In this document: positions 45,224 to 62,802 of the stretch, piece after piece
How the letters are laid out: each line of letters starts with the position of its first letter
Position numbering within the stretch: the stretch's first letter is position 1
NCBI GenBank assembly: GCA_964477095.1
Contig: CAYZDA010000002.1
Coordinates: 42,259-106,258, forward strand
Reading direction: 5' to 3'
Source of the DNA: an uncultured Bacteroidales bacterium
Lineage (GTDB): Bacteria; Bacteroidota; Bacteroidia; Bacteroidales; PWNQ01
DNA length: 64,000 nt
Notes under the pieces: model-generated
What the model was told of the DNA's origin: nothing
What the model saw: the letters and a program-made list of their open reading frames with translations, nothing else
Databases searched by the model: none
Translations under genes and position numbers: made by a program

Positions 45224-45480
45224 TATTCATTAAGTTTTTTGTTGCTCAGATATTTTGCCAGGGTTAATGTTCCTATAAAACTTAGTATTATCCAGGCAAT
45301 GCCGATATCCAGCAGGAACATCCTGTTGGTGAGTATTCCCAGGATAGCGCATATTCCTACCACCAGAATACCGAAGATATCGATCCCCACCATACGGTCT
45401 GCCACCGTAGGACCACGGATGATGCGATAGAGGCAGGCGACGCACAGGGCAATTTGTATGTACAATAAAGTTTCCAGCAT
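45223..45480 (-). CDS. Mrp/Mnh subunit F-like (MbhB-like)
   Basis: 85 aa, 3 TM. ...YRIIRGPTVADRMVGID... is typical of MnhF. Confidence 0.75.
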   Translation of the reverse strand: MLETLLYIQIALCVACLYRIIRGPTVADRMVGIDIFGILVVGICAILGILTNRMFLLDIGIAWIILSFIGTLTLAKYLSNKKLNE

Positions 45481-45965
45481 CAGTCAAATATTTTTTTGAT
45501 GTATTTTTCAAATCTTCCGGATACCTCACGGCTGTATTTTTCCGGGTCATCGGTTTTTACATATATCCAGTGAACAAATAGCTCATCACCAATAATATCC
45601 ACCGCGATTGTTCCAGGTGTCATGGTGATGGAATTGGCCAGCATGGTTTTTGCAATATCAGATTTCACCTCCAGAGGCACACGCACTATACCGGGTTTAA
45701 TGGGCATTCGGGGATGAATTACACGGTAGGCGACATCAAAATTGGCTTTAAGCACTTCCCATACAAATATAAACAGGTAAATAATGAACCAGAAGTACCG
45801 ATGTGGTTGGATAAGTTTACCAGTACTGCTCACAAAATTGTGTCCGAACAGAAAAACCGCAATTAATGCTGCCAAAGCACCAGTAATGATATTGGGCCAG
45901 CTTAGGTTGAAAGTGATCAGCAACCAGAATATCAGTAAAACTATAAAAGCTACAATGCGCTTCAT
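45480..45965 (-). CDS. Mrp/Mnh subunit E-like (MbhA-like)
   Basis: 161 aa. Two TM helices, then ...ANFDVAYRVIHPRMPIKPGIV...LANSITMTPGT, typical of MnhE. Confidence 0.75.
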   Translation of the reverse strand: MKRIVAFIVLLIFWLLITFNLSWPNIITGALAALIAVFLFGHNFVSSTGKLIQPHRYFWFIIYLFIFVWEVLKANFDVAYRVIHPRMPIKPGIVRVPLEVKSDIAKTMLANSITMTPGTIAVDIIGDELFVHWIYVKTDDPEKYSREVSGRFEKYIKKIFD

Positions 45966-45989
45966 ATTTCATATTTTTTCAGGATCATC

Positions 45990-47528: not shown

Positions 47529-47530
47529 AG

Positions 47531-47869
47531 TTAACCTCTTAATTCGTTGACCTTTTGTATATCAAAAGTTCCGTATCTTTTATAAATTCTAATGGCTATT
47601 GCCAGCAAAAGAGCTGTGGTAGCTATACCGATAACAATGGCTGTAAGCACCATAGCTTGTGGCAGCGGGTCAACATAAACAGGAGCATTTTCTCCGCTCC
47701 GGATGATGGGTGCAATACCATTATCAACATATCCGATCATGGCCAGAAAAAGGAAGCAACTGAATTCCATCACCGAAAAGCCAATAACAATCTTAATGAG
47801 GTTGCGGCGTGTGAGTACACCATACAAGCCGACTAAGAACAGGATAAAACACATTACATATACATTCAT
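47531..47869 (-). CDS. MrpC/NuoK-like subunit (MbhG-like)
   Basis: 112 aa, 3 TM. LTRRNLIKIVIGFSVME and ...DPLPQAMVLTAIVIG fit MnhC/NuoK. Confidence 0.8.
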   Translation of the reverse strand: MNVYVMCFILFLVGLYGVLTRRNLIKIVIGFSVMEFSCFLFLAMIGYVDNGIAPIIRSGENAPVYVDPLPQAMVLTAIVIGIATTALLLAIAIRIYKRYGTFDIQKVNELRG

Positions 47870-48303
47870 GATGCTACCTCCTCTTTATATATTACCAGCC
47901 CAAGGAAAATGGTGAGCAGTGCTGCAGCCACTTCCACACCAATAAAAATATTGTAGAGTGGAATCAAACCTGCGCTGATTAGTTCTCCCACCGCCCCTTT
48001 GGGCAAATAGTTATTAAAAAACACATAGGAACCATAGAACAGACCTCCCAAAGCCAAAAGAACTACTACGAAAAGGGCCATGCTTTCGGTAATTGATGAC
48101 TGCATCTCCTCCTGATGCAAATTAACCACCTCACTGCCAAAAGCGAGAATCAACAAAATAAAGGATCCGGCAATAATTGCACCCCCGGCAAAACCCCCAC
48201 CGGGAGTAAGATGACCATGGGTGATGATATATACGCCATATATAAATATCACGCTGCCTAGCAGTTGTGCTACTTTCTTTACTATTTCAGTCATTCCGGT
48301 CAT
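47866..48303 (-). CDS. MrpB-like subunit (MbhF-like)
   Basis: 145 aa. ...HGHLTPGGGFAGGAI... is the MnhB-domain signature. Confidence 0.8.
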   Translation of the reverse strand: MTGMTEIVKKVAQLLGSVIFIYGVYIITHGHLTPGGGFAGGAIIAGSFILLILAFGSEVVNLHQEEMQSSITESMALFVVVLLALGGLFYGSYVFFNNYLPKGAVGELISAGLIPLYNIFIGVEVAAALLTIFLGLVIYKEEVAS

Positions 48304-48839
48304 GATGCTTTTTCTTTTTTGCTTTTTGAACGTAAAACAGTCATTACTCCCAGTGCTGCAGTAAACAATATGGTAGCTTCGCCAAGGGTATCATACCCTC
48401 TGAAGTCAAAAAGAACTCCTGTAACCAGATTGGCACTGCCTGTTTGTGAAGCACCATCACTAATATAAAACTCTGACATGCGGATGGTGGAAGACCCGAA
48501 AGGATCAAGAGAACCGGCGAAGGAGGCAAATATCCACCCCAGTAATCCTACAATGACCAGTGAGCTTATGATATTAAGGACTTTGTTTGCATTCCATGCG
48601 TCTTTTATTTCCTGCCGGCTGGAATTAAGAACAACTGCTACCATTATAACCAGTGTAATGGTTTCTATGACGATCTGAACAATAGCCAGATCCGGTGCAC
48701 TCAGGAAGAGAAAACAGATAACCAGGCTGTAACCCACTATACCCTGCGCAATGAGCGCCGACAGCAGATCATGAGCATGCAGCGCATATAAGGCTCCGAT
48801 GATCATAAATCCGATTAATATTGAAAGCAATGTTTCCAT
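48300..48839 (-). CDS. MbhD/MbhE-like (DUF4040, MrpA C-terminal-like) subunit
   Basis: The ORF opens at 48968, but that would overlap the upstream gene. The ATG at 48839 gives METLLSILIGFMIIGAL..APDLAIVQIVIETI.., matching DUF4040. ...VTGVLFDFRGYDTLGEATILF is also typical. Confidence 0.65.
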   Translation of the reverse strand: METLLSILIGFMIIGALYALHAHDLLSALIAQGIVGYSLVICFLFLSAPDLAIVQIVIETITLVIMVAVVLNSSRQEIKDAWNANKVLNIISSLVIVGLLGWIFASFAGSLDPFGSSTIRMSEFYISDGASQTGSANLVTGVLFDFRGYDTLGEATILFTAALGVMTVLRSKSKKEKAS

Positions 48840-48850
48840 ATCTTGTTTTT

Positions 48851-50704
48851 TTACAGTAACATGAGAATTAACAGAATTACGAAGCCTCCGTAAATCCAGA
48901 ATGCATATCGATTGAGCACCCCTGTATGGAAAAAACTGAAGACTTTGCTCAATCCCAGTACAACCCATTTGAAGAGATCATACAAATCGAAATATTTCCT
49001 TTCAGCCCAGCTATATACCGTTGACAATACCGGCGCAGTGGTCAGGGTAGTATAAAATCCGGTTACCGGGTAATCATGGTGATCACCTACCTTTTCACCA
49101 CCTACAAATGAATCAGCTCTACGCATTTTTTTGAAGCTTCCCAGCCAGTAGATAAGCAGTCCGATGGCCACAGAAGCAAGTACCAGCCAGGCAAGCAGCG
49201 ACGAATCCCAGATTCCTGTAAAGCTGAATTCACCGCTAACCGGCATAAATAGTTCTTTTACAATATATTTTGTTGAAAAAGCTCCGAACCATATACAGAT
49301 TACAGCAAGCATAGCCACAGGTATCCACTGAACCACGGCTATTTCCTTCACTTTATCATAGATTTCTTTCCTGCTACCCAGGAAAATTCCGGCTATGAAC
49401 TTTATGAAACTGGCCAGAGTTAGGGCTGAGCCGAAAACCGCCAGGGCCAGCCAGACTATCCACAGTTCACTGGCAATACCTGCCTGATTGCCGAAATCTA
49501 TTATACCCTGATAGATCATCCATTTTGAGGCAAAGCCATTTAAAGGCGGGATACCTGAAATTGAAAGCGCAAATATCAGTGCGGTAGTAAAGGTAACGGG
49601 CATGGCCCGGGCCAGGCCTCCTGTTTTATCCAGCTCTGCTGTTCCTGTTTTCCTTTCCACGCTTGTAGCTGTTAAAAACAAGCCACCTTTATATACGGCA
49701 TTGTTAAACATATGGAATAAGCCTGCTGCAATTCCCAGTGGCGAGCCTAAGGATATTCCTACTACCATGTATCCCACCTGTGAAACAGCATGATATCCAA
49801 GCAACTTTTTGTAATTATGCTGCACCAGCGCCATCATCACAGCAAAAATAATGGTCATTACACCTATCAGGAGTAAAATGAAGGTGAGCCATTCTCCCAG
49901 AATGAATATCCTGCTGCAGAGCAAGGTCAGAAAGTATATTCCTATTAATTTGTCAAATGATGCAGGCATAAAAGCTGAGCTAATGCCATGAGCTTTTTTT
50001 GTAAAATTGATGATCCAGGTATGGAAAGGAAAAGCACCAGCTTTGGTGAAGGCGCCCACAGCCAGCAATATAAAAGATGTAATTGCAGCACCGCTGTTAG
50101 TAGCCAGCGATAATTCACTTATGTTTAATGTACCGGCAATATTCCATATCAGCCCAATGCCAATAATCATGATAGCATCTGATGAGCCTACCATGATCAG
50201 GGTTTTCTTTGCAGCATCTGAACTATCTTCATCATGCTGAGAAATAAGCATAAACAGGGTATAGCCCAATACTCCCCAGAAGAACAGGAAAAGCAGCAGG
50301 TTATCAGCCAGAATTGTACCTGCTGAACATCCCAGGGTGATTAAAAACCAGGCATAAAAATTAGATGGGAAAGCTTCATTTTTCTCTTTATAAAGCGAAT
50401 AAAGGTTGATCAGTGGTGCAAGAACTGCCAGAAAAAGCATAATCAGGCGGCTGAGCGGATTAATATTTAACTGGCTGAATTTCCCGGTCAAGTGTGCAAA
50501 TGAAGCCGTGATTCCTGAGTCGCCGAATCCGCTTAACAGATGGAACAGCTTGTCAGGAGCAGCAAACAGTTTTACTGCAAACCAGGTAAAAACCACGGTT
50601 ATGATCAGTGAAATAATGCCACTGGCAATACGTCCCGGGATCAGGAATAAAAGCATCCCGGCCACAACGGGAAGCAAAATCAATATGCTAATGTCGTTTA
50701 TCAT
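48851..50704 (-). CDS. antiporter-like subunit, MrpA/NuoL type
   Basis: 617 aa polytopic protein. ...FPFHTWI..., ...LLGYHAVSQVGYMVVG... and ...HMFNNAVYKGGLFL are NuoL/MnhA hallmarks. Confidence 0.85.
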   Translation of the reverse strand: MINDISILILLPVVAGMLLFLIPGRIASGIISLIITVVFTWFAVKLFAAPDKLFHLLSGFGDSGITASFAHLTGKFSQLNINPLSRLIMLFLAVLAPLINLYSLYKEKNEAFPSNFYAWFLITLGCSAGTILADNLLLFLFFWGVLGYTLFMLISQHDEDSSDAAKKTLIMVGSSDAIMIIGIGLIWNIAGTLNISELSLATNSGAAITSFILLAVGAFTKAGAFPFHTWIINFTKKAHGISSAFMPASFDKLIGIYFLTLLCSRIFILGEWLTFILLLIGVMTIIFAVMMALVQHNYKKLLGYHAVSQVGYMVVGISLGSPLGIAAGLFHMFNNAVYKGGLFLTATSVERKTGTAELDKTGGLARAMPVTFTTALIFALSISGIPPLNGFASKWMIYQGIIDFGNQAGIASELWIVWLALAVFGSALTLASFIKFIAGIFLGSRKEIYDKVKEIAVVQWIPVAMLAVICIWFGAFSTKYIVKELFMPVSGEFSFTGIWDSSLLAWLVLASVAIGLLIYWLGSFKKMRRADSFVGGEKVGDHHDYPVTGFYTTLTTAPVLSTVYSWAERKYFDLYDLFKWVVLGLSKVFSFFHTGVLNRYAFWIYGGFVILLILMLL

Positions 50705-51897
50705 ATGAGCTGTTTCTTTAGTTCTTTGGTTTTTGCGCGGGAAAGCTTAATAAGCTGTTCGCCATCCAGTATTTTCTTGCGTGAGCCGGCATCATAAGCT
50801 ACAGCCAGTCGCTCGGTGCAGCAATAGCATGGATCCACGGCAGCCAGTGAAATAGCTGCATCAGATATTGTTTGCCCCACACAGGACTTTTTGAAAGTTG
50901 CTATATTCACATAACTGGGTGCTCTTATCTTGTGGCGGACAGGCGTATTTGTGCCGTCCGTCCGCACATAATGAAATACCTCACCGCGAGGTGCCTCCGC
51001 ATGGCCGAATCCCTCACCTTCCGGTATCTCCCACACCTTATTAAAAATATTTCCTTCGGGAAGCTTCTCCATTTTATCCAGGCATTGCTCTATAATCTTG
51101 ATTGACTCATACATCTCCAGCAGCCGTACTTCTGCCTTGGCAAACACATCGCCTTGTTCAGCAGTTATCACCTTCCAGTCCACCATATCATAAGCTGCAT
51201 AGGGATCATCCATGCGAACATCAATTGCTACTCCTGAAGCCCTTGCCGTCGGACCAACTGCGGCATAGTCAACAACATCCTCACGGCTCATCACACCTAC
51301 ATTTTTGGTGCGAGCATGAATAACCGGATCATCCATCACAGCACCTGTAAGCAGATCCACTTTTTTCTTTAGTTTTGATAGCTCCTTACGAATAGTGCTG
51401 AATTTCGACTGTTCGATATCCCGTCTTACTCCCCCGATCCTGAACATGGCATAGCTGTTACGGTTTCCTGTTATCATTTCGAAAAGATCAAGTACCGGTT
51501 CCCGGTATTTCCACCCCCACATAAAAACAGTATCATAACCCAGGAAGTGACCGGCCAGCCCAACCCACAGCAAATGGCTGTGCAGGCGTTCGAGTTCTCC
51601 TATAATGGATCTGATATATTTGGCGCGGTCAGATACATCCACTTTCCCGATTTCTTCCATGCAATTGGCAAAAGCAAATGGATGAGAAGTGGAGCAGATA
51701 CCGCAAATCCTTTCCACCAGGAAAAACACCTGCTCAAAAGACTTCTGTTCAGCCAGTTTTTCAATCCCACGATGGTTGTAGCCCGTTTCCCATTCCACAT
51801 CCACCACCTTTTCACCTTCACAGTAGAGCTTGAAATACTCAGGCTCTTCCTGAAGCGGATGATAGGGTCCTATGGGTATGATCTTTCGTTTTTTCAT
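50701..51897 (-). CDS. group 4 [NiFe]-hydrogenase large subunit (MbhL/EchE/HycE-like, NuoD fold)
   Basis: Both Ni-binding Cys pairs are present: RICGICSTSH (N-terminal) and DPCYCCTER (C-terminal). A 35-residue tail follows, a potential HycI cleavage substrate. Confidence 0.9.
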   Translation of the reverse strand: MKKRKIIPIGPYHPLQEEPEYFKLYCEGEKVVDVEWETGYNHRGIEKLAEQKSFEQVFFLVERICGICSTSHPFAFANCMEEIGKVDVSDRAKYIRSIIGELERLHSHLLWVGLAGHFLGYDTVFMWGWKYREPVLDLFEMITGNRNSYAMFRIGGVRRDIEQSKFSTIRKELSKLKKKVDLLTGAVMDDPVIHARTKNVGVMSREDVVDYAAVGPTARASGVAIDVRMDDPYAAYDMVDWKVITAEQGDVFAKAEVRLLEMYESIKIIEQCLDKMEKLPEGNIFNKVWEIPEGEGFGHAEAPRGEVFHYVRTDGTNTPVRHKIRAPSYVNIATFKKSCVGQTISDAAISLAAVDPCYCCTERLAVAYDAGSRKKILDGEQLIKLSRAKTKELKKQLI

Positions 51898-51899
51898 CT

Positions 51900-52355
51900 T
51901 TAAAACTTTTTTCTGTAAGGATAAACACCCTGTTCCCAGTTTCCATCAGAAAACAGAGGGATCAGGTTGGGATGGCCTTCGAATTTCACTCCAAGTATTT
52001 CGTGGATTTCCCTTTCAATCCATTCTGCTGCGCTAAACAAATCAGTAAGGGATTTCACTTTAGGATCCTCCTGATGCAGTGTGACATGTAAGTTCACTAT
52101 GTCTCCGCTACTATCGTCGCTAAAATGATAGAATATCTCGATGCCATTTTCAGAGTGCAGCCCAGTGCCTATAATAAAACGGAATCTGAGGTCGCGATAG
52201 AAATATGAAGCTATTTGGTATAAAGCTTCCGGATTCACATAAAAAGTCACACGTCGCTGATCTGTCTGTTTTGTTTCCAGCAGCTCATCAGCGAATCTGT
52301 CCTTTACTAACTTTATGATTGCTTTGTCACTCATATTTTCAGATGGTTTCAGCAA
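51900..52355 (-). CDS. NuoC/MbhK-like subunit
   Basis: 151 aa. ...SLTDLFSAAEWIEREIHEILGVKFEGHP is the 30-kDa (NuoC) family motif. Confidence 0.85.
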   Translation of the reverse strand: MLKPSENMSDKAIIKLVKDRFADELLETKQTDQRRVTFYVNPEALYQIASYFYRDLRFRFIIGTGLHSENGIEIFYHFSDDSSGDIVNLHVTLHQEDPKVKSLTDLFSAAEWIEREIHEILGVKFEGHPNLIPLFSDGNWEQGVYPYRKKF

Positions 52356-52752
52356 GCTTCATTAAAGCCGATAACATAGCCTCGGGTTTTGGCGGGCAGC
52401 CCGGGATATAAGCATCCACGGGAATAATTTTGTCCACGGGCCCGGCAAAGGTATTTCCCTCGGCAAAGATGCCACCCGTGCATCCACAGGCTCCAAAGGC
52501 AACCACGAACACAGGTTTGGCTGTCTGCGCGTAAACCTCCAGCAGACGTGGCTTATCCCGCTTGTTGATGGACCCGTTGACCAGCAGCACATCTGCATGT
52601 CGTGGACTGCCGACCAGCTTCATTCCAAAGCGTTCCACATCATAGCGGGGCGTCAGGCAATCCAGTATTTCGATGTCACAGTTATTGCAGGAGGCTCCGC
52701 CAAAATGGAATACCCAAAGTGATTTTTTCAGACAAAATGATTTTAGTCCCAC
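52339..52752 (-). CDS. [NiFe]-hydrogenase small subunit, NuoB/MbhJ-like
   Basis: Cys ligands of the proximal [4Fe-4S]: GGASCNNCDIE, GACGCTGG and PGCPP. GTG start. Confidence 0.85.
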   Translation of the reverse strand: MGLKSFCLKKSLWVFHFGGASCNNCDIEILDCLTPRYDVERFGMKLVGSPRHADVLLVNGSINKRDKPRLLEVYAQTAKPVFVVAFGACGCTGGIFAEGNTFAGPVDKIIPVDAYIPGCPPKPEAMLSALMKLAETI

Positions 52753-52762
52753 GGCATTAGTT

Positions 52763-53695
52763 TTAAATTCCTAAATAATCCAGCATCAGTCCTGCTATTA
52801 CAAACAGGTTCATCCAGATGAGGAAGAACCGCATGGCCTGTCCGATTTTCAAACGCGGATTGGTATTGCGAATCAGAACCATCAGAATCAGCACCGCCAA
52901 TATTTTCAGTATGGACCACAGTATGTCAAATCCGGCAAAGCGGAGCCCCCCGAAAAATACCTCGGCAGCAAAAACCGGCAGGATAAACAGCAGGATATAT
53001 TTGGTGTATTTGATAATTGCATATGCTGACCCGGAATATTCCATAAACACCCCCTCAGCTATTTCAGTCTCCGCTTCTGCCAGGTCAAAAGGCACAAAGC
53101 CTGCTTTAGCCTGAAGGGTAAACAACAGTGCGATAAACATTAAAACTCCGGACACACTACCGATAAAAGCACCCTGGCTTTGCTGTAGTTGCATAATAGT
53201 ATCAAGACTGATGCTGTTACCTGCTTTCAGGATAACTCCCGCGATTACCAGCAGGAATGTGAGTTCGTAGCTTAATACTAACTTGATTTCACGCGAAGCA
53301 CCCACAGCCGACAGTGGATTTCCTGAGGCAAGAGCACCAGCAATAAACATAAGAGACGGGATCACTAATAGATAGAACAGCACTAGGATGTCACCATGAA
53401 AGCCGGAAGAGATACCCAGGGCCGGCAACAGTATGACAACCGCAGCAGCCGAGGCACCAAATAAGCTTAAAACGGGTGCAAGCAGGAAAAAAACTGCAGA
53501 CCCTTTTTTGGGCAGGATGGTTTCCTTTACCAAAAGTAATTTCAAAAAGTCATAGAATGGCTGCAACAATGGCGGTCCTTTTCTGAACTGCACACGCGCT
53601 GTGACCTTACGATCGGCCCAGGCAAATAAGCCACCTACAATACCGGCAAACAGCATTCCGGGATAAATAAAAAAGTAGAATAAGTTTTCAAGCAT
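52763..53695 (-). CDS. NuoH/MbhM/HycD-like membrane subunit
   Basis: 310 aa, 8 TM. ...RKVTARVQFRKGPP..., FDLAEAETEI and EYSG are NuoH-family motifs. Confidence 0.85.
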   Translation of the reverse strand: MLENLFYFFIYPGMLFAGIVGGLFAWADRKVTARVQFRKGPPLLQPFYDFLKLLLVKETILPKKGSAVFFLLAPVLSLFGASAAAVVILLPALGISSGFHGDILVLFYLLVIPSLMFIAGALASGNPLSAVGASREIKLVLSYELTFLLVIAGVILKAGNSISLDTIMQLQQSQGAFIGSVSGVLMFIALLFTLQAKAGFVPFDLAEAETEIAEGVFMEYSGSAYAIIKYTKYILLFILPVFAAEVFFGGLRFAGFDILWSILKILAVLILMVLIRNTNPRLKIGQAMRFFLIWMNLFVIAGLMLDYLGI

Positions 53696-53696
53696 A

Positions 53697-54197
53697 TTAT
53701 CCTAAATTTTTCAGTTTCTCCCAGGAATGATCTCTTATCAGAATCCCGGGCATCAGTTCATACAGGTTTTTCTGGTCATCCGGTTCTTCGTCGGTAAACC
53801 GGACAGCACCGGACGGGCTGTTATTTATAAATTTCTCCAGCTCCTCACTGTCTTGCAGATCATAATACCATGTCCTGTCCCGCACGTATTCATAAAAATC
53901 GCTCATCATAGTACCAAATGGACAGGCAGCAACACATGATTTACAGGCAACGCAAAGATGGCTTGACCGGATTACCATTCCCTGTTCATCCTTTTTCAAT
54001 GCATCCTCCGGGCAAACATTCACACACGGGGCAACCTTACAGCGCCGGCAGGAATAAGCAAATACTGCCAATTCTCTAAGTGGTTTCAGCCCTCCATTCC
54101 CCTTGTAGTCACGAATAATTCCATCAGGAACTCTGTGGTCGCAGCCGCCCTCGGTACATGCGCGGTATTTCTCCAGATCGATGAGTATTTTTTTCAT
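53697..54197 (-). CDS. 4Fe-4S dicluster ferredoxin-like subunit (HycB/CooF-like)
   Basis: CRRCKVAPCVNVCP and CVACKSCVAACP motifs. It abuts the nuoH-like gene. Confidence 0.8.
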   Translation of the reverse strand: MKKILIDLEKYRACTEGGCDHRVPDGIIRDYKGNGGLKPLRELAVFAYSCRRCKVAPCVNVCPEDALKKDEQGMVIRSSHLCVACKSCVAACPFGTMMSDFYEYVRDRTWYYDLQDSEELEKFINNSPSGAVRFTDEEPDDQKNLYELMPGILIRDHSWEKLKNLG

Positions 54198-54207
54198 CTG
54201 TTAATAA

Positions 54208-54272
54208 TTTTGATTTCAGCGGTTCCCGCTAACGGCGGGATCTATTCCCGTCATTTATGCGGGGGAACTCGC
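54208..54272 (-). repeat. GC-rich structured intergenic element, copy B (internal gap of the hydrogenase cluster)
   Basis: Same 16-mer and GC blocks as copy A, with about 20 extra nt. Local hairpins are TCCCGC-cgtta-GCGGGA and TTCCC...GGGAA (minus-strand sense). It ends 10 nt before the ATG at 54197. Confidence 0.7.
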
Positions 54273-54360
54273 ATGTAGTATACCGCCTGAGGCGGATTAT
54301 GCCAGTTTCATTTCAGTATGAGTATCCTGTGGTTATATTTTAAATATCCACCAGTTTAAT

Positions 54361-55191
54361 CTACAACCAGATGTCAGGCTGATCTTTAATTTCTTCGTAG
54401 GTAAAAACAGGGCCGTCCTTGCACACAAAATACTTACCCATCATGCAGTGTCCGCATTTTCCCAGTCCGCACGACATGTTCTTTTCCATGGACAGGAATA
54501 TCCTGTTCTCAGAATAACCCATGTCCAGCAGCTTCTGCACCCCAAATTTCATCATGACAGGTGGCCCCACCACCACGGCTACAGAATCTTCAATTTTTAC
54601 GTTTATTTCATCCAGCAGACAGGTTACCACCCCCTCGGATTCAGTCCAGGTTTCATCGGCTTTATCTACGCTTCTGAGCACCTCAAACTTATCCACCAAC
54701 CGCAGGTGGTCGATATAACTTTTGTAGATACAGTCTTTTGGTGTTTTGGAGCCATAGCAGAAAACCATTCGTTTTATTTTGTCTTTTTCGGCTTCCAAAT
54801 TATAGATCAGCGAGCGAATTGGAGCAAAGCCGCAGCCACCGCCCAGTATCAGCACTTCCTTATCATACATTTCATCCAAAGGGTATCCCCTGCCGTATGG
54901 TCCGCGGATACCCAGTACTGTGCCCTCTTCCAGCTGGTGGATTTTATCAGTAACAAAACCGGCTTTCATAATGGTAACTTCCAGTTCATCATCGACCAAA
55001 GGCGAAGATGAAGGTGTAAACGGAGCTTCACCCACTCCCTCAAGGATCAGCTCAATAAATTGCCCGGTTTTAAAACTGAAATTGCGTTCGGGTTTTAAAA
55101 CAAAGGTTTTAATTGAGGGTGATTCCTCAATAACTTTTGTCAGGGTGGCCTTTACAGGTTTATACAAGTCAACTTCAGCAGTGGTAATCAT
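54361..55191 (-). CDS. FAD/NAD(P)-binding [2Fe-2S] oxidoreductase subunit (HydG / AsrB / PyrK-like)
   Basis: FNR-fold motifs: EAPFTPSS (RxYS-like), ILGGGCGFAPIRS (NAD(P)-binding) and a C-terminal CGLGKCGHCMMGKYFVCKDGPVF cluster. Confidence 0.8.
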   Translation of the reverse strand: MITTAEVDLYKPVKATLTKVIEESPSIKTFVLKPERNFSFKTGQFIELILEGVGEAPFTPSSSPLVDDELEVTIMKAGFVTDKIHQLEEGTVLGIRGPYGRGYPLDEMYDKEVLILGGGCGFAPIRSLIYNLEAEKDKIKRMVFCYGSKTPKDCIYKSYIDHLRLVDKFEVLRSVDKADETWTESEGVVTCLLDEINVKIEDSVAVVVGPPVMMKFGVQKLLDMGYSENRIFLSMEKNMSCGLGKCGHCMMGKYFVCKDGPVFTYEEIKDQPDIWL

Positions 55192-56198
55192 ACTTCCACA
55201 ATTTGGTTGTGAGTTAATTCCCTGAATAGTTCATTTTTATTTATCTCGCCGATGCATGCTTCAATGCAGCGCCCACATCCGGTGCATGCTTTGGATTCAA
55301 ATTTCAGTGGCTTCCACACATATTTGCACATATAACGGTTGCGAAAGCGCTTTTGCAATGGTCGCAGAGGGTCTTCCCCGGCAGCTACACGCTCAAAGCC
55401 AGGATACTGACAGGTGTCAATGCTTCTTACTTTCTCGAATTCCGGACGCTCGATAAACAGAAAACAGGAGCAGGTAGGACAAATGGCCGAACATGCGCCA
55501 CAGGAAACACAGTTTTCTGAATACTTTTTCCAGATATCCTTACCAGATGCCTCTATCAATGATCCTGTCTTCCTGTAATCGGGCAATTCACTGTTTTTAT
55601 CCTTAAGCTCTTTTACCACTTCTTCCCTAAGATTTTGGATTGCTTTTCTATCCTCACTGTTTATCGGATCATAAGTTCTGATGTGTTCTTTTATAAAATT
55701 GCCGCCCTTTTCTGTTTTTATTGTCAGAACTACCCTGTTGCCGATCTGATTAAGTACCAGATCAGCATTTTCTTCCACATAAGGTTTGAAGCCATAAGTT
55801 GTACAATGACAGTGTTCATTGGTGGAATGACAATCAGTACCTATTAAAATCGTATGATTTCTGTTCCGGCTATATGTGGGATCAATGTATTCCTTATCCA
55901 GATATATTTCATCCAGTATTGACAGAGCACTCAGATCGCAGGAGGGAACGCCCATAATAATCCTTTTTGATTTCCCATTATTCATAAAAAGGTTTTCCCT
56001 TATGGGCAAAAAAAGTGTTTTTAAAGGAGAAACTGGTTTGGGGCAGTTGTAAACGATACCATTTACATTTTCTTTCGTAATAACTGCATACTCAACTTGT
56101 TCATCATATAAACATGGTGCATATACCTGATAATACTGCAGAAGTCTAACCAGTAACGCGTTCCATTTTTCTTTTTCGAGAGTAAAGCCTGAGTCCAT
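55188..56198 (-). CDS. 4Fe-4S subunit (HydB / AsrA-like)
   Basis: CVSCGACSAICPTCSCF and CTGCGRCIEACIGEI motifs in a 336-aa protein. 4-nt overlap with the HydG-like gene. Confidence 0.8.
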   Translation of the reverse strand: MDSGFTLEKEKWNALLVRLLQYYQVYAPCLYDEQVEYAVITKENVNGIVYNCPKPVSPLKTLFLPIRENLFMNNGKSKRIIMGVPSCDLSALSILDEIYLDKEYIDPTYSRNRNHTILIGTDCHSTNEHCHCTTYGFKPYVEENADLVLNQIGNRVVLTIKTEKGGNFIKEHIRTYDPINSEDRKAIQNLREEVVKELKDKNSELPDYRKTGSLIEASGKDIWKKYSENCVSCGACSAICPTCSCFLFIERPEFEKVRSIDTCQYPGFERVAAGEDPLRPLQKRFRNRYMCKYVWKPLKFESKACTGCGRCIEACIGEINKNELFRELTHNQIVEV

Positions 56199-56210
56199 TA
56201 AAGTATATTA

Positions 56211-56228
56211 TTGTGATAGTTTTCACAA
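56211..56228. promoter_or_regulatory. Rex operator (ROP-like box)
   Basis: TTGTGATAGTTTTCACAA matches the TTGTGAAnnnnTTCACAA consensus at 13/14 specified positions. The extended palindrome is ATTGTGA-N6-TCACAAT. It lies 12 nt upstream of the ATG at 56198, in the rex-divergent intergenic region. Confidence 0.65.
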
Positions 56229-56472
56229 TTTAAAATTACTATAAATTACAGGTTAAGTCAAATTTATTCAGAACTTTTTATTAATTTTATAGGTTTTTTA
56301 ATTTAATCCAAATCTTCATAAGGCTTGAATGTGTTGCCAGCCGCCTAACCACGGGAAATTACTTGATTTCCACTTTTCTTTGCATTATCTTTAGCCTGAC
56401 TATACAATAAAAATACATTTTTTGAGAAAGAAATACTTTTAAACTTTGCCTTATTGCTACAACTCTATCAAC

Positions 56473-57087
56473 ATGGAATCGACTGCTTATACCAAACGGC
56501 TATTAACGTACCGCCTGAGCCTTTCACATTTAAAAGAGGTAGGGTTAACCGATGTTTTTTCATATCTGATAGCAAGTGAAACAGGATATAGCGCCGCGCT
56601 TATCCGCAAAGACCTTTCCCGCCTGAAAGCAAAAGGCAAGCGCCGCGGCGGCTACGAGATCGACACCATACTGGAAGCCATAAATGAACATTTCGGCCAG
56701 CAAAAAACCAACAAGGTTGTAATAGCAGGCATGGGCAATATCGGCAGCGCAATTGCCCGGTATAAAGATTTTAAGAAACGCAATATAAAGATAGTAGCTG
56801 CCTTTGATCTTGACCCTGCTAAACAGCGAAAAGGCTATAATATACCGGTCTTACCACTGACTAAATGCCATGATATAGCCAGGGAACACACCATAGATGC
56901 AGCGATCCTGGCGGTACCTGCTTTTTCGGCCCAGGCTGTGTGCGACCAGTTAATCCAGTGTGGAATCAGGGGGATTATGAATTTTGCACCTATAAATCTA
57001 AGAGTGCCCCAAAACGTGTATGTTTCGAATGTGAGGCTGAGTGATGAACTGCAACAGGTAATTTATCATGCTACCAAAGAAAACTGA
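56473..57087 (+). CDS. rex: redox-sensing transcriptional repressor Rex
   Basis: The winged-helix N-terminus (...RLLTYRLSLSHLKEVGLTDVFSYLIASETGYSAALIRKDLS) is followed by RRGGYEID and the Rossmann motif VVIAGMGNIGSAIARY. ATG at 56473 within ORF 56446..57087. Confidence 0.85.
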   Translation: MESTAYTKRLLTYRLSLSHLKEVGLTDVFSYLIASETGYSAALIRKDLSRLKAKGKRRGGYEIDTILEAINEHFGQQKTNKVVIAGMGNIGSAIARYKDFKKRNIKIVAAFDLDPAKQRKGYNIPVLPLTKCHDIAREHTIDAAILAVPAFSAQAVCDQLIQCGIRGIMNFAPINLRVPQNVYVSNVRLSDELQQVIYHATKEN

Positions 57088-57089
57088 TT

Positions 57090-59372
57090 ATGAAAAAGAC
57101 CGCGCGACATATCCACATAACCGGTCTGGTGCAGGGGGTTGGTTTTCGTCCGTTTGTTTACAGGCATGCTAAAAGGTATGGTCTGTCCGGTTGGGTGCGT
57201 AATCATGCAGCTGGTGTGGATGTCGTGATAGAAGGCAGTACACGAAGGTGCAACCAATTCATCCGTTCACTGAAAAAAGATGCTCCCATAGCTTCCCTGA
57301 TCAGCATGCTGGTAGAAACAAAAGCAGAACCCGAAAACCTATCTGACTTCCAAATCAGACCCAGTATAAACGGCTATGAACAAATAACGGATATTTCTCC
57401 TGACATCGCAGTGTGCAATGAATGCCTCATGGATATAAAACAGCAGCATCGCCGCCTCTCCTACCCTTTTACTAACTGTACCCACTGCGGGCCGAGATTT
57501 TCTATTATCACTAACATTCCTTATGATCGCAGTGCAACCAGCATGAAAAAATTTATCATGTGCGAAGAATGTATGAAGGAATATACCAACGTGCATGATC
57601 GCAGATTCCATGCCCAGCCGGTTTCCTGCATCCATTGCGGACCTGCTTACAAATGGATCAGCAAATCCGGTACGATTGAAAGCCGGCAAGAATGTTTTAC
57701 CCGTTTGTATTCGGAACTGAAGACTGGGAAAATTATCGCGCTGAAAAGTACCGGAGGCTTTCAGCTGATTTGTGATGCCTCAAACCCTGAGGCGGTTAAC
57801 CGCCTTAGGAGGATCAAGCAGCGCCACAGCCGTCCATTTGCCATAATGTTCAAAAATATAGAAGAACTCAAAAAGCACACCTACATAAACAGAGAGCAAA
57901 AAAAATACCTGCAATCATGGCAGCGACCTGTCGTGATCCTGAAGGATAAAAGCAGTTATTTTACTGAAGTGAACCCGGGCTATACAACTATCGGGGCTAT
58001 ACTGCCTTATACCCCTTTACATCATATAATAATGGAAAACAGTGATATTCCAGCCATGGTCTTTACAAGCGCCAATGTTAAAGGCAGTCCTCTGATCTTT
58101 GAAAATGACAGGGCTCTGGAACTCCTAAAGCAGAAAGGTTGTGATGCTGTATTACTTCACAACCGGGCTGTTATTAATAGTCAGGATGACTCCATAGTCA
58201 AAATTCATGATCATGGACCGTGTATTATTCGCAGGGCCAGAGGATTTACACCTTCACCTGTTGTATTGAAATTTGAAGTGGAAAACATTTTAGCAGTTGG
58301 GGCTGACTTCAAAAACAGCTTTTGCATCGGAAAGGACCGGCGGGCCATCATGAGCCAGTATATGGGCAACCTGGAAGATTACGAGGTACTACAGAGATTC
58401 ACAAACAGCATTAATAAAATCAGCAAGCTATTCAAATTCAAGCCCACGATTATAGCTCATGACCTGCACCCGGATTACCACAGCAGCGGCCATGCTTTAA
58501 AAATCGCTGAGCAGCATGCCATCCCGGAGGAAAGGATCATCGGAGTGCAACATCATCATGCACATATAGCCTCAGTTTTAGCTGAACATGGAATTAACGA
58601 AGCTGTAATAGGTGTTGCTTTTGACGGAACAGGCTATGGTGAAGACGGCAGAATCTGGGGTAGTGAATTTATGATCTGTGACCGGATACAGTACCAGAGA
58701 AAATATCACCTTGACTATTTTCCACTACCCGGAGGGGATAAGGCTGTGAAGGAACCCTGGCGATTAGCTGTTGCTCTCGGTTACAGAGCCTTCGGCAAGA
58801 ATTTCCCCGACTTTCCCCTGGAGTTTCAAAAACATATCCCGAAAGAAAAACAAAAAAACATCATAAAAGCTATAGATAATAATGTAAACATCTCGTGGTC
58901 GTGTGGTGCAGGCAGATTATTTGACGCAATAGCCGCCATCACCAACATCACGCATTATGCTGAGTTTGAAGGCGAAGGTCCCTTAAAACTGGAAAATATC
59001 CATAAAACATCTGAAGATTACTATCATATCCCCCTTCAGAACAATGCTTTTTCACCGGATATACTGATCCGTGCCACCATTAATGATTTGCTGGCGGGTA
59101 TTCCTGTTTCTGAAATATCAGGCCGTTTTCATAACAGCATTATCAATATGGTCTTAGTAGGTGTCAACCGTATTGCTATGGAAACAGGCTTAAATAAAGT
59201 GGCCTTATCGGGAGGTGTATTCCAAAATAAAATTATTACAAACAGCATATATCAAAAACTTTATGCGCAAGGATTTCAGGTTTATGTAAACCAACAGGTA
59301 CCGTGCAATGACGGAGGGATTGCACTGGGTCAAATGGCAGTTGCACAGCAATTGGCACAGAATCAAATATAA
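57090..59372 (+). CDS. hypF: [NiFe]-hydrogenase maturation carbamoyltransferase HypF
   Basis: Acylphosphatase domain (HITGLVQGVGFRPFVY), two CxxC...CxxC zinc-finger pairs, and YrdC and Kae1-like domains. 760 aa. Confidence 0.95.
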   Translation: MKKTARHIHITGLVQGVGFRPFVYRHAKRYGLSGWVRNHAAGVDVVIEGSTRRCNQFIRSLKKDAPIASLISMLVETKAEPENLSDFQIRPSINGYEQITDISPDIAVCNECLMDIKQQHRRLSYPFTNCTHCGPRFSIITNIPYDRSATSMKKFIMCEECMKEYTNVHDRRFHAQPVSCIHCGPAYKWISKSGTIESRQECFTRLYSELKTGKIIALKSTGGFQLICDASNPEAVNRLRRIKQRHSRPFAIMFKNIEELKKHTYINREQKKYLQSWQRPVVILKDKSSYFTEVNPGYTTIGAILPYTPLHHIIMENSDIPAMVFTSANVKGSPLIFENDRALELLKQKGCDAVLLHNRAVINSQDDSIVKIHDHGPCIIRRARGFTPSPVVLKFEVENILAVGADFKNSFCIGKDRRAIMSQYMGNLEDYEVLQRFTNSINKISKLFKFKPTIIAHDLHPDYHSSGHALKIAEQHAIPEERIIGVQHHHAHIASVLAEHGINEAVIGVAFDGTGYGEDGRIWGSEFMICDRIQYQRKYHLDYFPLPGGDKAVKEPWRLAVALGYRAFGKNFPDFPLEFQKHIPKEKQKNIIKAIDNNVNISWSCGAGRLFDAIAAITNITHYAEFEGEGPLKLENIHKTSEDYYHIPLQNNAFSPDILIRATINDLLAGIPVSEISGRFHNSIINMVLVGVNRIAMETGLNKVALSGGVFQNKIITNSIYQKLYAQGFQVYVNQQVPCNDGGIALGQMAVAQQLAQNQI

Positions 59373-59497
59373 AAACTGATCATCTGTTCAACGCTTGATA
59401 ATTGTCACTGCCGCCAGAAACCAGTATATTTAGCTGTGAATCACTGCCTGAACGCTATTATTACAATGACTAACAACTAACATAGAGGACAAAAAAT

Positions 59498-59719
59498 ATG
59501 TGTTTAAGTATTCCGGCTAAGATTAAATCTGTTGAAGGGAAAAAAGCCATCGTGAGTGTTGGCGGAAATGAATACCGGGCGGACATCAGTCTGGTTCCTG
59601 ATGCTGTTGCAGGGGATTATATCTTGTTGCATGCCGGCTTTGGCATCCAAAAGATCAGGAAAGATGATGCGCAAATCACTCTCGGGCTTCTGAAAGAAAT
59701 AAATAAAAAAGATAGATAA
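59498..59719 (+). CDS. hypC: hydrogenase assembly chaperone HypC
   Basis: 73 aa starting MCLSIPAKI (essential Cys2). Confidence 0.9.
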   Translation: MCLSIPAKIKSVEGKKAIVSVGGNEYRADISLVPDAVAGDYILLHAGFGIQKIRKDDAQITLGLLKEINKKDR

Positions 59720-60802
59720 ATGAAGTTCATAACCGAATACCGTAACCGGCAACTGGTGAGCAAACTGGCTGAAGCCATAAAGCATGAAGCCCGTGATCAA
59801 TATCTGTTTATGGAGGTTTGTGGAAGCCACACTCATGCCATTCGCCGTTATGGGATTCCATGGCTACTGCCTGAAAACATACGTCTGCTTTCGGGTCCCG
59901 GTTGTCCGGTTTGTGTAACGGATCAATCATTTATTGATAAAGCGGTATGGCTCGCCCAGCAGGCTGGCATAGTGCTTGCCACATTTGGCGATCTGATAAG
60001 AGTGCCTGGAACACAAAAAAGTTTGTTAAACTGCAAACTGCAGGGTGCTGATGTGCGCGTAATCTACTCTTCGCTTGAAGCACTGGAGATGGCAAAAGCA
60101 GAACCGCATAAGGAAATCGTTTTCGCTGCCATAGGCTTTGAAACAACAGCACCATCCACGGCAGTGACACTGCAACGCAGCAGAGAAGAAGACGTGAAAA
60201 ATTTTTCTGTTTTATGTGCACACAAGCTTATGCCGCCTGCCATGCATGCAGTAATTGAGCACGGAATATCCGTCAGTGGATATATCTGTCCGGGGCACGT
60301 AAGCAGTATCACGGGCAGCCAGATTTACCAAATATTTTCCCGTCGCCATAAGGTGGCTACTGTAGTAGCCGGTTTTGAACCCACAGATATATTGCAGGCC
60401 ATTCTGATGCTTGTAAGACAGGTTAACCACCGCAACTTCAGAACGGAAATCCAGTACAAGCGTGCTGTCAGCCGCCATGGGAACCTGGTGGCAAAGGATG
60501 TGATGAATAATGTATTTGAAAAAAGCGATACGCCCTGGCGCGGATTCGGAATCTTGCCTCAAAGCGGGTTGCAAGTGAATAAAAAATATGAACCTATGGA
60601 TGCAGAAAAGCGCTTCAGTATAAATATTTCTGAAGTGAAATATAATGAATCCTGCATCTGTGGTGACATCCTGAAAGGACACAAAGAACCCCGGGATTGC
60701 CGGTTATTTGCTCATAGCTGTACACCGGACAAACCTGTAGGAGCCTGCATGGTATCCGCCGAAGGCAGTTGTAACGCTCATTATAAATACCGTGAAATAT
60801 GA
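59720..60802 (+). CDS. hypD: hydrogenase maturation protein HypD
   Basis: FMEVCGSHTH, GPGCPVCV and GFETT motifs, plus C-terminal Cys-rich [4Fe-4S] ligands. Confidence 0.95.
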   Translation: MKFITEYRNRQLVSKLAEAIKHEARDQYLFMEVCGSHTHAIRRYGIPWLLPENIRLLSGPGCPVCVTDQSFIDKAVWLAQQAGIVLATFGDLIRVPGTQKSLLNCKLQGADVRVIYSSLEALEMAKAEPHKEIVFAAIGFETTAPSTAVTLQRSREEDVKNFSVLCAHKLMPPAMHAVIEHGISVSGYICPGHVSSITGSQIYQIFSRRHKVATVVAGFEPTDILQAILMLVRQVNHRNFRTEIQYKRAVSRHGNLVAKDVMNNVFEKSDTPWRGFGILPQSGLQVNKKYEPMDAEKRFSINISEVKYNESCICGDILKGHKEPRDCRLFAHSCTPDKPVGACMVSAEGSCNAHYKYREI

Positions 60803-61812
60803 ACGACAGGATTGAAGCAGGACATGGTAGTGGCGGGCGCATGACGCGCAAACTGATCAGGGAACTTTTTCTGAAACACTTCAATAATCAGGAGCTGAAT
60901 AATGAAGGTGACAGTGCGTTGGTTGAAGTCAACAGTGGTATCCTGGCGATTACCACCGACTCCTATGTGGTGAGTCCGCTGTTCTTTCCAGGTGGAGACC
61001 TGGGTAAGCTGGCGGTATGTGGCACTGTGAATGATCTTTCAGTAAGTGGCGCTGTGCCGCGTTGGCTAACAGCCGGATTCATCCTGGAAGAAGGACTGCC
61101 GCTGGCCACACTGGAAGGTGTGGTGACAAGTATGGCGGCCACAGCCCGGGAAGCAGGCGTGAAAATAGTAGCTGGCGATACTAAGGTGGTAGGTAAAGGT
61201 CAGGCGGACAGCATTTACATTAACACCAGCGGCGTAGGGATTGTACCTGAAAACTACCGGCAATTATCTTGCGGGGAACTGATTCATCCGGGTGATCTTT
61301 TATTGCTGAGCGGTAGTACCGGTGATCATGAAGCGGCTATTATCAATGCACGCGAGGGATTCTTTGACAAAACGCGCCTGGTCTCCGACTGCGCACCTTT
61401 GAACGGGTTAATAAGCAATATGCTGGAAAAATGCGAGGGCATAAAGTTCATGAGAGATATCACCCGCGGTGGTTTGGCAGGCATTCTCAGTGAGATCGCT
61501 GAGATGGCCGGTGCCGGACTGGAGATCATTGAGGCAGATATCACCATTAATGAACCGGTGGCAGCCTTTTGCGAAGTACTGGGTTTTGACCCGCTGCAAT
61601 TTGCCAGTGAGGGCTGCATTGTTATAGTATTGGATAACCGGAAAGCTGAAAAAGTATTAAAAGTATTGCGGGAACATAAGTATGGAAAGCATGCTGCTGT
61701 TATTGGCCGGGTTACCAAAGAACACCCGGCCATGGTGATCATGGAAACGGTGATAGGCGGGCGCAGAATCATAGAACCACCCTGGTCTGCTAAAACACCT
61801 AGAATTTGCTGA
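60799..61812 (+). CDS. hypE: hydrogenase maturation protein HypE
   Basis: PurM-like fold. C-terminal ...PRIC ending typical of HypE. 4-nt overlap with hypD. Confidence 0.95.
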   Translation: MNDRIEAGHGSGGRMTRKLIRELFLKHFNNQELNNEGDSALVEVNSGILAITTDSYVVSPLFFPGGDLGKLAVCGTVNDLSVSGAVPRWLTAGFILEEGLPLATLEGVVTSMAATAREAGVKIVAGDTKVVGKGQADSIYINTSGVGIVPENYRQLSCGELIHPGDLLLLSGSTGDHEAAIINAREGFFDKTRLVSDCAPLNGLISNMLEKCEGIKFMRDITRGGLAGILSEIAEMAGAGLEIIEADITINEPVAAFCEVLGFDPLQFASEGCIVIVLDNRKAEKVLKVLREHKYGKHAAVIGRVTKEHPAMVIMETVIGGRRIIEPPWSAKTPRIC

Positions 61813-61813
61813 T

Positions 61814-62155
61814 ATGCACGAACTGGCGGTCATAGATAACATAATGCGCATCACGCTGCAAGTGGCTGAAGAAAACAAACTCAGCCGCGTTACTGCAGTA
61901 AAACTGGATGTGGGTGAAATGCAACATCTCAACGAAGCGATCATGCAACATGGTTTTGAAGCAGCAACAGCCAATACATTGTTGAATAAAGCTGCACTGG
62001 AAATTAAAAGGCTGCCGGTAAAGCTGAAATGCAACAAATGCGGGAAGTGTTTCGGAACGAAAGACGGATCATATAATTGCCCGCGGTGCAAATCAACAGA
62101 TACTGAAGTAAAGCAGGGAATGGAACTAAACATCAATAGCATAGAAGGAGAATAA
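61814..62155 (+). CDS. hypA: nickel-insertion metallochaperone HypA
   Basis: MHE N-terminus. CNKCGK...CPRCKS zinc site. Confidence 0.9.
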   Translation: MHELAVIDNIMRITLQVAEENKLSRVTAVKLDVGEMQHLNEAIMQHGFEAATANTLLNKAALEIKRLPVKLKCNKCGKCFGTKDGSYNCPRCKSTDTEVKQGMELNINSIEGE

Positions 62156-62157
62156 TT

Positions 62158-62802
62158 ATGGAAATAAAAGTTTTACGCAATGTCCTGGACCGGAATAATG
62201 ATCAGGCCGAAAAAAACCGTGAATTTCTGAAAAAGCACCACATTATGATGCTGAATTTCATCAGCTCACCAGGAGCGGGAAAAACCACATTACTGGAAAA
62301 AACTATCCCGGAACTTAACAGGAGCATGAAGGTAGCGGTAATTGAAGGAGATGCCTTTACCAGCAAAGATGCAGAAAGGCTTCAGCGGTTCGGGATTCCC
62401 ATAGTGCAAATCAACACTGAAGGTTCGTGCCACCTGGACTCCAGCAGTATCAGTAGCGCATTTGAAGAGCTGGACATGCCAGCACTTGATATTATCCTGG
62501 TGGAAAATGTAGGTAACCTGATCTGCCCCACGGGCTTTGACCTGGGTGAAGATCATCGCATCGCTGTGCTAAGCACTACCGAAGGGGATGATAAACCTTC
62601 GAAGTATCCCATGTTGTTCCGCCAGGCAGCTGCAGTTGTTCTAAATAAAGTTGACCTGCTCCCGTACGTGAATTTCAACACCCGGACTTTCCTTGATGAC
62701 CTGAATAACCTGAACCCCAACATTCCTGTGTTTGAGACCGCCGCTGTTCATGACTCCGGTATGAATGAATGGCTGAAATGGATAAAGGAGCTGGAAAAAT
62801 AA
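62158..62802 (+). CDS. hypB: nickel-dependent GTPase HypB
   Basis: P-loop SSPGAGKTTLL, ENVGNLICP (the CH-like metal motif region) and NKVDL. No His-rich N-terminus. Confidence 0.9.
   Translation: MEIKVLRNVLDRNNDQAEKNREFLKKHHIMMLNFISSPGAGKTTLLEKTIPELNRSMKVAVIEGDAFTSKDAERLQRFGIPIVQINTEGSCHLDSSSISSAFEELDMPALDIILVENVGNLICPTGFDLGEDHRIAVLSTTEGDDKPSKYPMLFRQAAAVVLNKVDLLPYVNFNTRTFLDDLNNLNPNIPVFETAAVHDSGMNEWLKWIKELEK

Follow-up and report, generated by a model that had tools for sequence, protein, structure and literature searches.

The redox-sensing repressor Rex is a well-understood sensor of the NADH/NAD+ ratio, and what is known of its regulons comes mostly from Gram-positive bacteria, with a few other groups besides. 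In Caldicellulosiruptor bescii, Rex binds before two hydrogenase operons, the 19-gene Ech [NiFe] operon and the Hyd [FeFe] operon, and is released by NADH; hydrogenases are also counted among the taxon-specific Rex targets (PMC6391272). For Clostridium kluyveri an operon led by rex itself, rex-crt1-bcd1-etfB1A1-hbd1-nfn, has been described (PMC6405883, citing Hu et al. 2016). Here we analyse a 64-kb stretch of DNA from an uncultured Bacteroidales bacterium (hereafter the window), in which a rex gene and a large [NiFe] hydrogenase operon point away from each other. Between them, at positions 56211-56228, lies the palindrome TTGTGATAGTTTTCACAA, which an earlier annotation made from the letters of the window (the sequence-only reading) took for a Rex operator governing the hydrogenase operon. 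The family score of the Rex protein, the conservation of the site and its association with rex support this core proposal. We consider it likely that the palindrome functions as an operator, the cognate repressor being the Rex protein whose gene lies on the other strand at a distance of 245 nt.

A predicted Rex operator before the hydrogenase operon

The Rex consensus is an 18-bp inverted repeat, TTGTGAAnnnnTTCACAA, as quoted in PMC6391272, and the window was scanned for it with the consensus TTGTGAANNNNTTCACAA. The palindrome agrees with this consensus at 13 of the 14 specified positions and forms the inner part of an extended palindrome, ATTGTGA-N6-TCACAAT, at 56210-56229; in both respects the sequence reads as had been stated earlier. 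Read in the sense of the operon, its promoter-proximal half-site is a perfect TTGTGAA and the single mismatch falls in the distal half. Twelve nucleotides (56199-56210) separate the box from the first ATG of the hydrogenase cluster, at 56198 on the minus strand (open reading frame (ORF) 55188-56198), which is the distance that the sequence-only reading had given. Two of the properties by which a Rex operator (ROP) is recognised are found here: an 18-bp inverted repeat matching TTGTGAAnnnnTTCACAA (13/14), and conservation before orthologous genes in genomes that encode Rex. The site stands 12 nt before the first gene of the hydrogenase operon; on its upstream side, 2 nt away, is a conserved -7-like box, and a predicted start site is close by. 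We regard it as a real Rex operator, and very probably a functional one.

Within the window the site has no equal. It is the sole match with at most two mismatches to TTGTGAANNNNTTCACAA, and about 0.02 sites with at most one mismatch are expected per 64 kb from the base composition. A weight matrix built solely from the orthologous sites of other genomes gives it 21.7 bits, the best score in the window, against 12.9 bits for the next distinct site; the maxima of 20 shuffles range from 11.8 to 19.6 bits, all below the score of the operator. At three mismatches or fewer the window is not enriched in Rex sites (8 observed, 5.5 expected), so that it holds one outstanding site and not a family of sites. 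A second candidate, GTGTGACACTTTTCACAT at 28904-28921, was rejected: it has a TGTGA-N6-TCACA core but lies inside an ORF (28620-29810, minus strand), and its 12.9 bits fall inside the range of the shuffle maxima, so that it is probably a chance match.

The regulator that would bind the operator is, judged by its sequence, a bona fide Rex. The protein combines an N-terminal winged-helix domain (PF06971, scoring 30.6 bits at residues 13-58 of the 213-residue ORF, cut-off 27) with a C-terminal Rossmann domain for NAD(H) binding (PF02629, 62 bits), and it passes the NCBIfam equivalog NF003996 with 188.3 bits (cut-off 138) as well as NF003995 (178.6 against 126) and NF003994 (166.1 against 130). 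The glycines G86, G88 and G91 of its GMGNIG motif and the aspartate D112 (in AAFD) are invariant in 28 Rex sequences. Three of the traits by which the family is recognised are therefore present: the winged helix, a Rossmann domain that has GxGxxG and, following the second beta-strand, an acidic residue, and a score above the curated threshold. The recognition segment (IRKDLS...GKRRGGY) is likewise conserved and, together with GMGNIG and the FD motif, aligns with solved Rex proteins, among the homologous structures being 5ZZ5, 2VT2 and 3WG9 (Rex of Thermotoga maritima, Bacillus subtilis and Thermoanaerobacter ethanolicus). The true start of the gene is the ATG at 56473 and not the TTG at 56446 with which the mechanically called ORF begins (56446-57087, 213 residues), since all 27 homologues align from that methionine. 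The homologues carry the annotation of uncultured Bacteroidales; the nearest species representative is the Bacteroidales metagenome-assembled genome JAIPAE01, with only 75% Rex identity. Exact matches to the sequence were limited to two contigs of 4 kb from the public runs SRR29060565 and SRR21542054.

Table 1. Coordinates of the features discussed, in the numbering of the window
Feature	Position	Strand	Remarks
Rex operator (predicted)	56211..56228	.	plus strand TTGTGATAGTTTTCACAA; operon sense TTGTGAAAACTATCACAA
Predicted -7 box of the hydrogenase operon, TAATTTTA (TAnnTTTA)	56231..56238	-	2 nt upstream of the operator
Predicted -33 element, TTG within conserved TTGAC	56257..56261	-	20 nt upstream of the -7 box
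Octamer TAAATTTG of the sequence-only reading	56259..56266	-	present; reread as containing the -33 TTTG
hydB-like gene, Fe-S protein, sulfhydrogenase beta / AsrA-like	55188..56198	-	first operon gene; PF17179; 336 codons
hydG-like gene, FAD/NAD(P)-binding subunit, sulfhydrogenase gamma / AsrB-like	54361..55191	-	
Rest of hydrogenase operon	43775..54197	-	ferredoxin, NuoH-like, small, NuoC-like and large subunits, then Mrp/Mbh
[NiFe] large subunit	50701-51897	-	motifs RICGICSTSH and DPCYCCTER
Predicted rex-hypF promoter, TTG-N20-TATCTTTA	56363..56393	+	pattern match; no Rex box
rex, redox-sensing repressor	56473..57087	+	204 residues; PF06971, PF02629, NF003996
hypF	57090..59372	+	starts 2 nt after the rex stop
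Promoter-like site, TTG-N20-TATATTTA	59402..59432	+	hypF-hypC gap; pattern match alone
hypC, hypD, hypE, hypA, hypB	59498..62802	+	

Conservation of the predicted operator and its association with rex

Related loci were collected in two samples. A scan with the Rex alignment, restricted to one genome per species, gave 80 genome loci, in 26 of which a hydB homologue is divergent from rex and is followed by the same hydrogenase genes. Twenty of these 26 loci have a site with at most three mismatches no farther than 14 nt from the hydB start; in 25 of them a box anchored on TGTGA is found 1-13 nt before the hydB ATG, down to a Rex identity of 42%. The three closest relatives (65-75% Rex identity) have boxes with one mismatch at 10-13 nt from the ATG. 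When the boxes are aligned, all share TGTGA, and A follows it in every site except one (25/26); the loci differ in the central spacer, in the distal half-site and in the flanks. Altogether 818 kb of related loci contain 31 sites with at most two mismatches, and these are mostly located in, or adjoining, the intergenic regions of rex.

As the genome loci had been found via rex, the second sample, of metagenome contigs, was seeded on hydB. Thirty-nine of its loci have a divergent rex upstream, and the box is present at the hydB start in 34 of them; the other five mostly have a recognisable degenerate box. Among hydB-seeded loci that lack rex within at least 900 nt of upstream sequence, two of 12 have the box (34/39 versus 2/12, Fisher exact p=1.2e-5). 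The comparison covered flanks of 2.5 kb, and the direction of the association between box and rex is clear.

The box itself comes in several forms. A clade variant, TTGTGAAATT(C/T)GGAACAA, is found at the hydB start in seven loci (L010, L013, L014, L015, L020, L025 and L060) and also in L027 and L034. Its distal half-site reads GGAACA instead of TTCACA and is still conserved across many genomes, and it may represent an altered specificity of Rex or an asymmetric mode of binding. In a large freshwater and sediment clade of the metagenome sample (L090, L097 and L104-L138) the box ATGTGAATCTTCTCACAT follows directly after TATATTTTTAT and overlaps the hydB start codon, ending with the A and T of the ATG; this overlap implies that the leader is very short or that translation truly starts at another codon. 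In L059, with no box at hydB, only TTGTGATCAATTGAACAA is seen, about 280 nt upstream, and the operator has apparently been lost or moved.

The genes facing rex vary as well. In the Planctomycetes bacterium DG_23 (L075:145-11719), hypFCDE, rex, hydB, hydG and the genes for the membrane subunits are all on one strand: the same gene set in another phylum and another order, with the box TTGTGATAGTTTTCACGA about 100 nt upstream of rex. In Bacteroidota loci whose rex does not adjoin a hydrogenase of the membrane-bound hydrogenase (MBH) type, the gene divergent from rex encodes a flavoprotein of about 600 residues resembling HdrA, together with an HdrC-like Fe-S protein, or encodes MvhD (PF02662). 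Loci of this type are L033:1657-3700, L009, L017, L021, L026, L028, L029, L032, L037, L039, L041 and L058, and also L006 and L022; in L033 two Rex-type boxes lie between the hdrA-like gene and a divergent rex-hypFCDEAB. Taken as gene neighbourhoods, these loci make it seem that Rex in Bacteroidota is habitually wired to redox clusters of the H2 or Hdr type.

The predicted hydrogenase promoter and alternative readings of the palindrome

Promoters of Bacteroidetes have an upstream TTG or TTTG as a further element besides the -7 box. In the start-site maps of Flavobacterium the -7 box of the housekeeping sigma factor, TAnnTTTG, spans -12 to -5, and median leaders measure 24-32 nt (PMC9723704). 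The minus strand of the window reads TTG (56261..56259), a 20-nt spacer and TAATTTTA (56238..56231), just ahead of the operator. A TAnnTTT[A/G] box occurs 1-13 nt upstream of the Rex box in 24 of the 26 genome loci, and in all 24 the spacer to a TTG is 19-21 nt long. The arrangement TTG-N20-TAATTTTA is the strongest conserved block in the alignment of the close clade, where the -7 block is invariant. The window has 18 matches to the composite promoter pattern, where shuffles give 7.2 +/- 2.5, and the only three that fall within 54-63 kb are all intergenic and oriented toward the next gene, namely the first hydrogenase gene, rex and hypC. A scan of 54-63 kb for sigma-70 promoters and terminators gave counts equal to those of shuffles, the sigma-70 model being unsuited to Bacteroidetes. 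With the -7 box at -12 to -5, transcription would start near 56226, the operator would extend from about -2 to +16, and the leader would be about 28 nt long. The operator therefore most likely overlaps the predicted start site instead of lying at +27 to +44, and repressors that act by keeping RNA polymerase off the promoter usually bind at such a position (about -2 to +16).

Several points weigh against a Rex operator acting at this promoter. The predicted -7 box ends in A where the consensus ends in G. The site scan covers only 64 kb of the genome. The related loci are linked by descent, and among the metagenome loci many promoters are near-identical, so that the Fisher p value overstates the evidence. 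L059, at 69% Rex identity, has a different hydB-rex intergenic region of 454 nt (L059:5547-6000) without a box at hydB. About 40% of the genome loci have a degenerate distal half-site (GGAACAA), which makes the strength of binding there uncertain. The core of the site, TGTGA-N6-TCACA, is identical to the core recognised by the CRP protein of Escherichia coli. No study of Rex in Bacteroidota was found in the literature searched.

The alternative that survives best, though we regard it as unlikely, keeps the Rex box and moves the promoter. The sequence-only reading had taken TAAATTTG for the -7 box, which would place the start at about 56254 and make the operator a downstream roadblock at +27 to +44. 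The octamer is indeed present at 56266..56259 of the minus strand; it is a perfect TAnnTTTG, without the final A of TAATTTTA, and it is kept in the relative L003. It is absent from the close relatives L004 (TCTAATTG) and L005 (ACATGTTG) and from all the more distant clades, and no TTG is found 17-23 nt upstream of it, whereas the arrangement TTG-N20-TAnnTTTA is conserved in 24 of the 26 loci. Most likely TAAATTTG supplies the TTTG of the -33 element and is not itself a -7 box. An operator lying across the predicted start is accordingly preferred to one downstream of the start, as first proposed, which conservation does not favour.

A regulator of the CRP/FNR family in place of Rex, with the neighbouring rex gene a coincidence, is a distinctly improbable explanation of the palindrome. 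Beyond the shared core it could draw on several clades that read ATGTGA...TCACAT, with the flanking base of a CRP site. The inner base, however, is the A of the Rex consensus, TGTGAA being found in 25 of the 26 aligned sites, and the presence of the box follows that of rex in the hydB-seeded sample. It is this association that separates Rex from a CRP-type protein with the same core. Rex-type boxes are also found before rex, or before its divergent neighbour, in settings whose neighbours and orientation differ widely (L033, L026, L041, L058, L061 and L075).

Still less probable is that the inverted repeat acts as RNA, as a hairpin in the 5' leader that tunes translation or stability of the first gene. 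A 7-bp stem with a 6-nt loop is predicted in the leader, and in Bacteroidetes, where Shine-Dalgarno sequences are missing, mRNA structure around the start codon influences initiation (PMC6847099). The predicted fold is weak (-6.8 kcal/mol, z=-1.26) and not significant, 24 of 200 shuffles folding equally well. Evolution has kept the sequence of one arm (TGTGAA) and not the pairing: TTGTGAAATTCGGAACAA occurs in seven loci and there are no compensatory changes. A start near 56226 would leave part of the 5' arm untranscribed, and no Rfam family matches in the region. The hairpin was rejected for its insignificant fold, the lack of covariation and the lack of an Rfam match. A functionless chance palindrome, for which the A+T-rich intergenic region and the lack of enrichment at three mismatches might be cited, can practically be dismissed, given how few such sites are expected per window and that dozens of diverged loci keep this one in the same place although their neighbouring bases vary. 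We accordingly retain a Rex operator at the core promoter of the hydrogenase operon as the likely reading.

One further element stands in the same intergenic region. The block TTTTTTAATTTAATC at 56294-56309, about 35-50 nt upstream of the -33 element of the hydrogenase promoter, is almost invariant between the window and L003-L005, and it could be an A/T-tract enhancer of the promoter or the site of a second regulator.

Transcription of rex and the hyp genes

On the other side of the intergenic region, rex ends with the TGA at 57085-57087 and hypF begins with the ATG at 57090, a spacing that the sequence-only reading had given correctly. The gap of 2 nt leaves no room for a terminator or a promoter and the close order of rex and then hypF is seen again in 12 other loci, so that co-transcription of the two genes, as predicted from their arrangement, is well supported. 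The earlier proposal that the whole series rex-hypFCDEAB is co-transcribed is supported for rex-hypF; the genes further downstream need not depend on the rex promoter alone. The gap between hypF and hypC measures 125 nt and contains a promoter-like site (59402-59432), and hypCDEAB may have a promoter of their own in addition to that of rex. The promoter predicted for rex and hypF includes a block, CTTGATTT...TATTATCTTTA, which is conserved in L003-L005. An initial guess for this promoter, TAAACTTTG near 56440, was dropped in favour of the conserved TTG-N20-TATCTTTA.

Neither the matrix scan nor the alignment revealed a Rex box near the promoter, the leader or the start of rex in the window, so that autoregulation is not evident. 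A second box directly before rex is found in several other clades (L007, L008, L012, L018, L030, L054 and L056). In the lineage of the window only the structural operon would thus appear to be under the control of Rex, and the repressor and the maturation genes would not.

The hydrogenase operon

The target of the predicted operator extends from 56198 to at least 43775 on the minus strand, about 12.4 kb. After the hydG-like gene come genes for a ferredoxin, a NuoH-like protein, a NuoB-like small subunit (PF01058), a NuoC-like protein and the large subunit; Mrp/Mbh membrane subunits, a second ferredoxin and a HycI protease form the tail. The large subunit has as its closest solved chain the alpha subunit of the MBH of Pyrococcus furiosus (6CFW_L, E=2e-86), and the gamma-like subunit has the gamma subunit of P. 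furiosus sulfhydrogenase I (9NEZ_C, E=2e-47). The features of a group 4 (MBH/Mrp-linked) [NiFe] hydrogenase are all found: the nickel-binding motifs RxCGxCxxxH (N-terminal) and DPCxxCxxR (C-terminal) of the large subunit, a NuoB-like small subunit and Mrp-type membrane subunits. The hydB- and hydG-like genes score far below every equivalog cut-off for ShyB/HydB/AsrA and ShyC/HydG/AsrB (for example 146 against 690 for ShyB and 212 against 289 for AsrB). By these comparisons the two genes are homologous to the sulfhydrogenase beta and gamma subunits and to AsrAB, and are members of none of these named families. The operon as a whole is predicted to encode a membrane-bound, Mrp-linked group-4 [NiFe] hydrogenase with an extra module of the NAD(P)H type. 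A search of the literature for a hybrid of MBH and sulfhydrogenase in Bacteroidales found nothing relevant. The hybrid hydrogenase is more unusual than the regulatory element in front of it.

Between the gamma-like gene and the ferredoxin gene lies a non-coding gap of 163 nt (54198-54360, minus strand) with two G+C-rich stem-loops, CCGCC-TCA-GGCGG and CCCGC-CGTTA-GCGGG, which are not followed by a run of T. The corresponding genes of L003 are separated by about 9 nt. The gap could be an element for mRNA processing or stability, or the remnant of an insertion.

Proposed mechanism and significance

At a low NADH/NAD+ ratio, a dimer of Rex would sit on the operator at the core promoter and block RNA polymerase. 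A rise in NADH would release Rex and allow the hydrogenase to be made, and the cell could then dispose of excess reducing power as H2. With rex and hypF transcribed from their own, box-free promoter (56363-56393), the repressor and at least HypF would be made independently of Rex. The analysis shows the sequence itself, what Rex and the hydrogenase genes are, that box and promoter are conserved, and that the box goes with rex; in this scheme we infer the binding, the repression, the response to NADH, where transcription starts and in which direction the enzyme works. The physiology of a 'redox valve', as the sequence-only reading had called it, is a reasonable conjecture from the locus. Control by an NADH sensor would fit an H2-evolving, NAD(P)H-oxidising role of the sulfhydrogenase-like module, and would argue for this direction in the unusual hybrid hydrogenase as a whole.

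A wider proposal can be put forward tentatively, and it may well prove wrong. The loci might represent a widespread yet undescribed enzyme class of Bacteroidota (and of at least one Planctomycete locus, L075), in which an ion-translocating [NiFe] hydrogenase of the MBH/Mrp type is fused at the level of the operon to a sulfhydrogenase beta/gamma-like NAD(P)H module. The enzyme would be a redox valve gated by Rex, the ion gradient driving the uphill production of H2 from NAD(P)H. With the HdrA/MvhD clusters included, Rex would be the dedicated H2 master switch of the phylum.

The locus changes nothing in what is known of how Rex works. Together with some 60 related loci it offers a clean, testable case, in which the operator, the promoter and the gene of the regulator lie within 300 bp and the genes to be controlled encode a large energy-converting hydrogenase in anaerobic Bacteroidales that are uncultured. 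If the operator is confirmed, the H2 production of these organisms would become predictable from their redox state, and a conserved Rex motif would be at hand for predicting regulons in metagenome-assembled genomes of Bacteroidota.

Comparison with known systems

The closest parallel is with C. bescii and C. saccharolyticus (PMC6391272), where an 18-bp operator of the TTGTGAAnnnnTTCACAA type likewise precedes a multi-gene operon for a group-4 [NiFe] hydrogenase. The logic of a repressor released by NADH, with reducing equivalents disposed of as H2, is proposed here as there. The Caldicellulosiruptor systems belong to Firmicutes, have gel-shift evidence and include an autoregulated rex, whereas the present one belongs to Bacteroidota, has promoters of the -33/-7 kind and is predicted from its sequence. 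Here, moreover, the hydrogenase is of the Mrp-linked MBH type with a sulfhydrogenase beta/gamma-like module; rex is divergent from its target and heads hypF, and there is no box at the rex promoter. The C. kluyveri operon resembles our locus in that rex heads a transcription unit which also contains genes of the redox pathway under its control. In C. kluyveri these co-transcribed genes are the regulated catalytic genes, whereas here the co-transcribed gene encodes the maturation factor HypF and the regulated operon is divergent.

The CRP sites of enterobacteria have the identical pentamer core and 6-bp spacing; the conserved inner A (TGTGAA), the outer T of this clade and the association with rex set the present site apart and indicate Rex. 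Activation from a position farther upstream is the usual mode of a CRP site. The enzyme finds its likeness in the MBH (6CFW) and in the beta and gamma subunits of sulfhydrogenase I (SHI; 9NEZ) of P. furiosus, to which the large subunit and the second gene, respectively, are similar; Mrp-type subunits are present here. In P. furiosus these are two separate enzymes, a ferredoxin-using MBH and a cytoplasmic SHI, whereas here the counterparts are encoded together in one bacterial operon. To our knowledge, MBH and SHI of P. furiosus are regulated via SurR, and not via Rex. Rex operators before hydrogenase operons (shown in Firmicutes), and rex genes at the head of operons of pathway genes, were thus already known. 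What the present locus adds is the phylum, the promoter context of Bacteroidetes, the tight and widespread divergent wiring of rex and hydrogenase genes, and a hybrid, MBH/sulfhydrogenase-like target.

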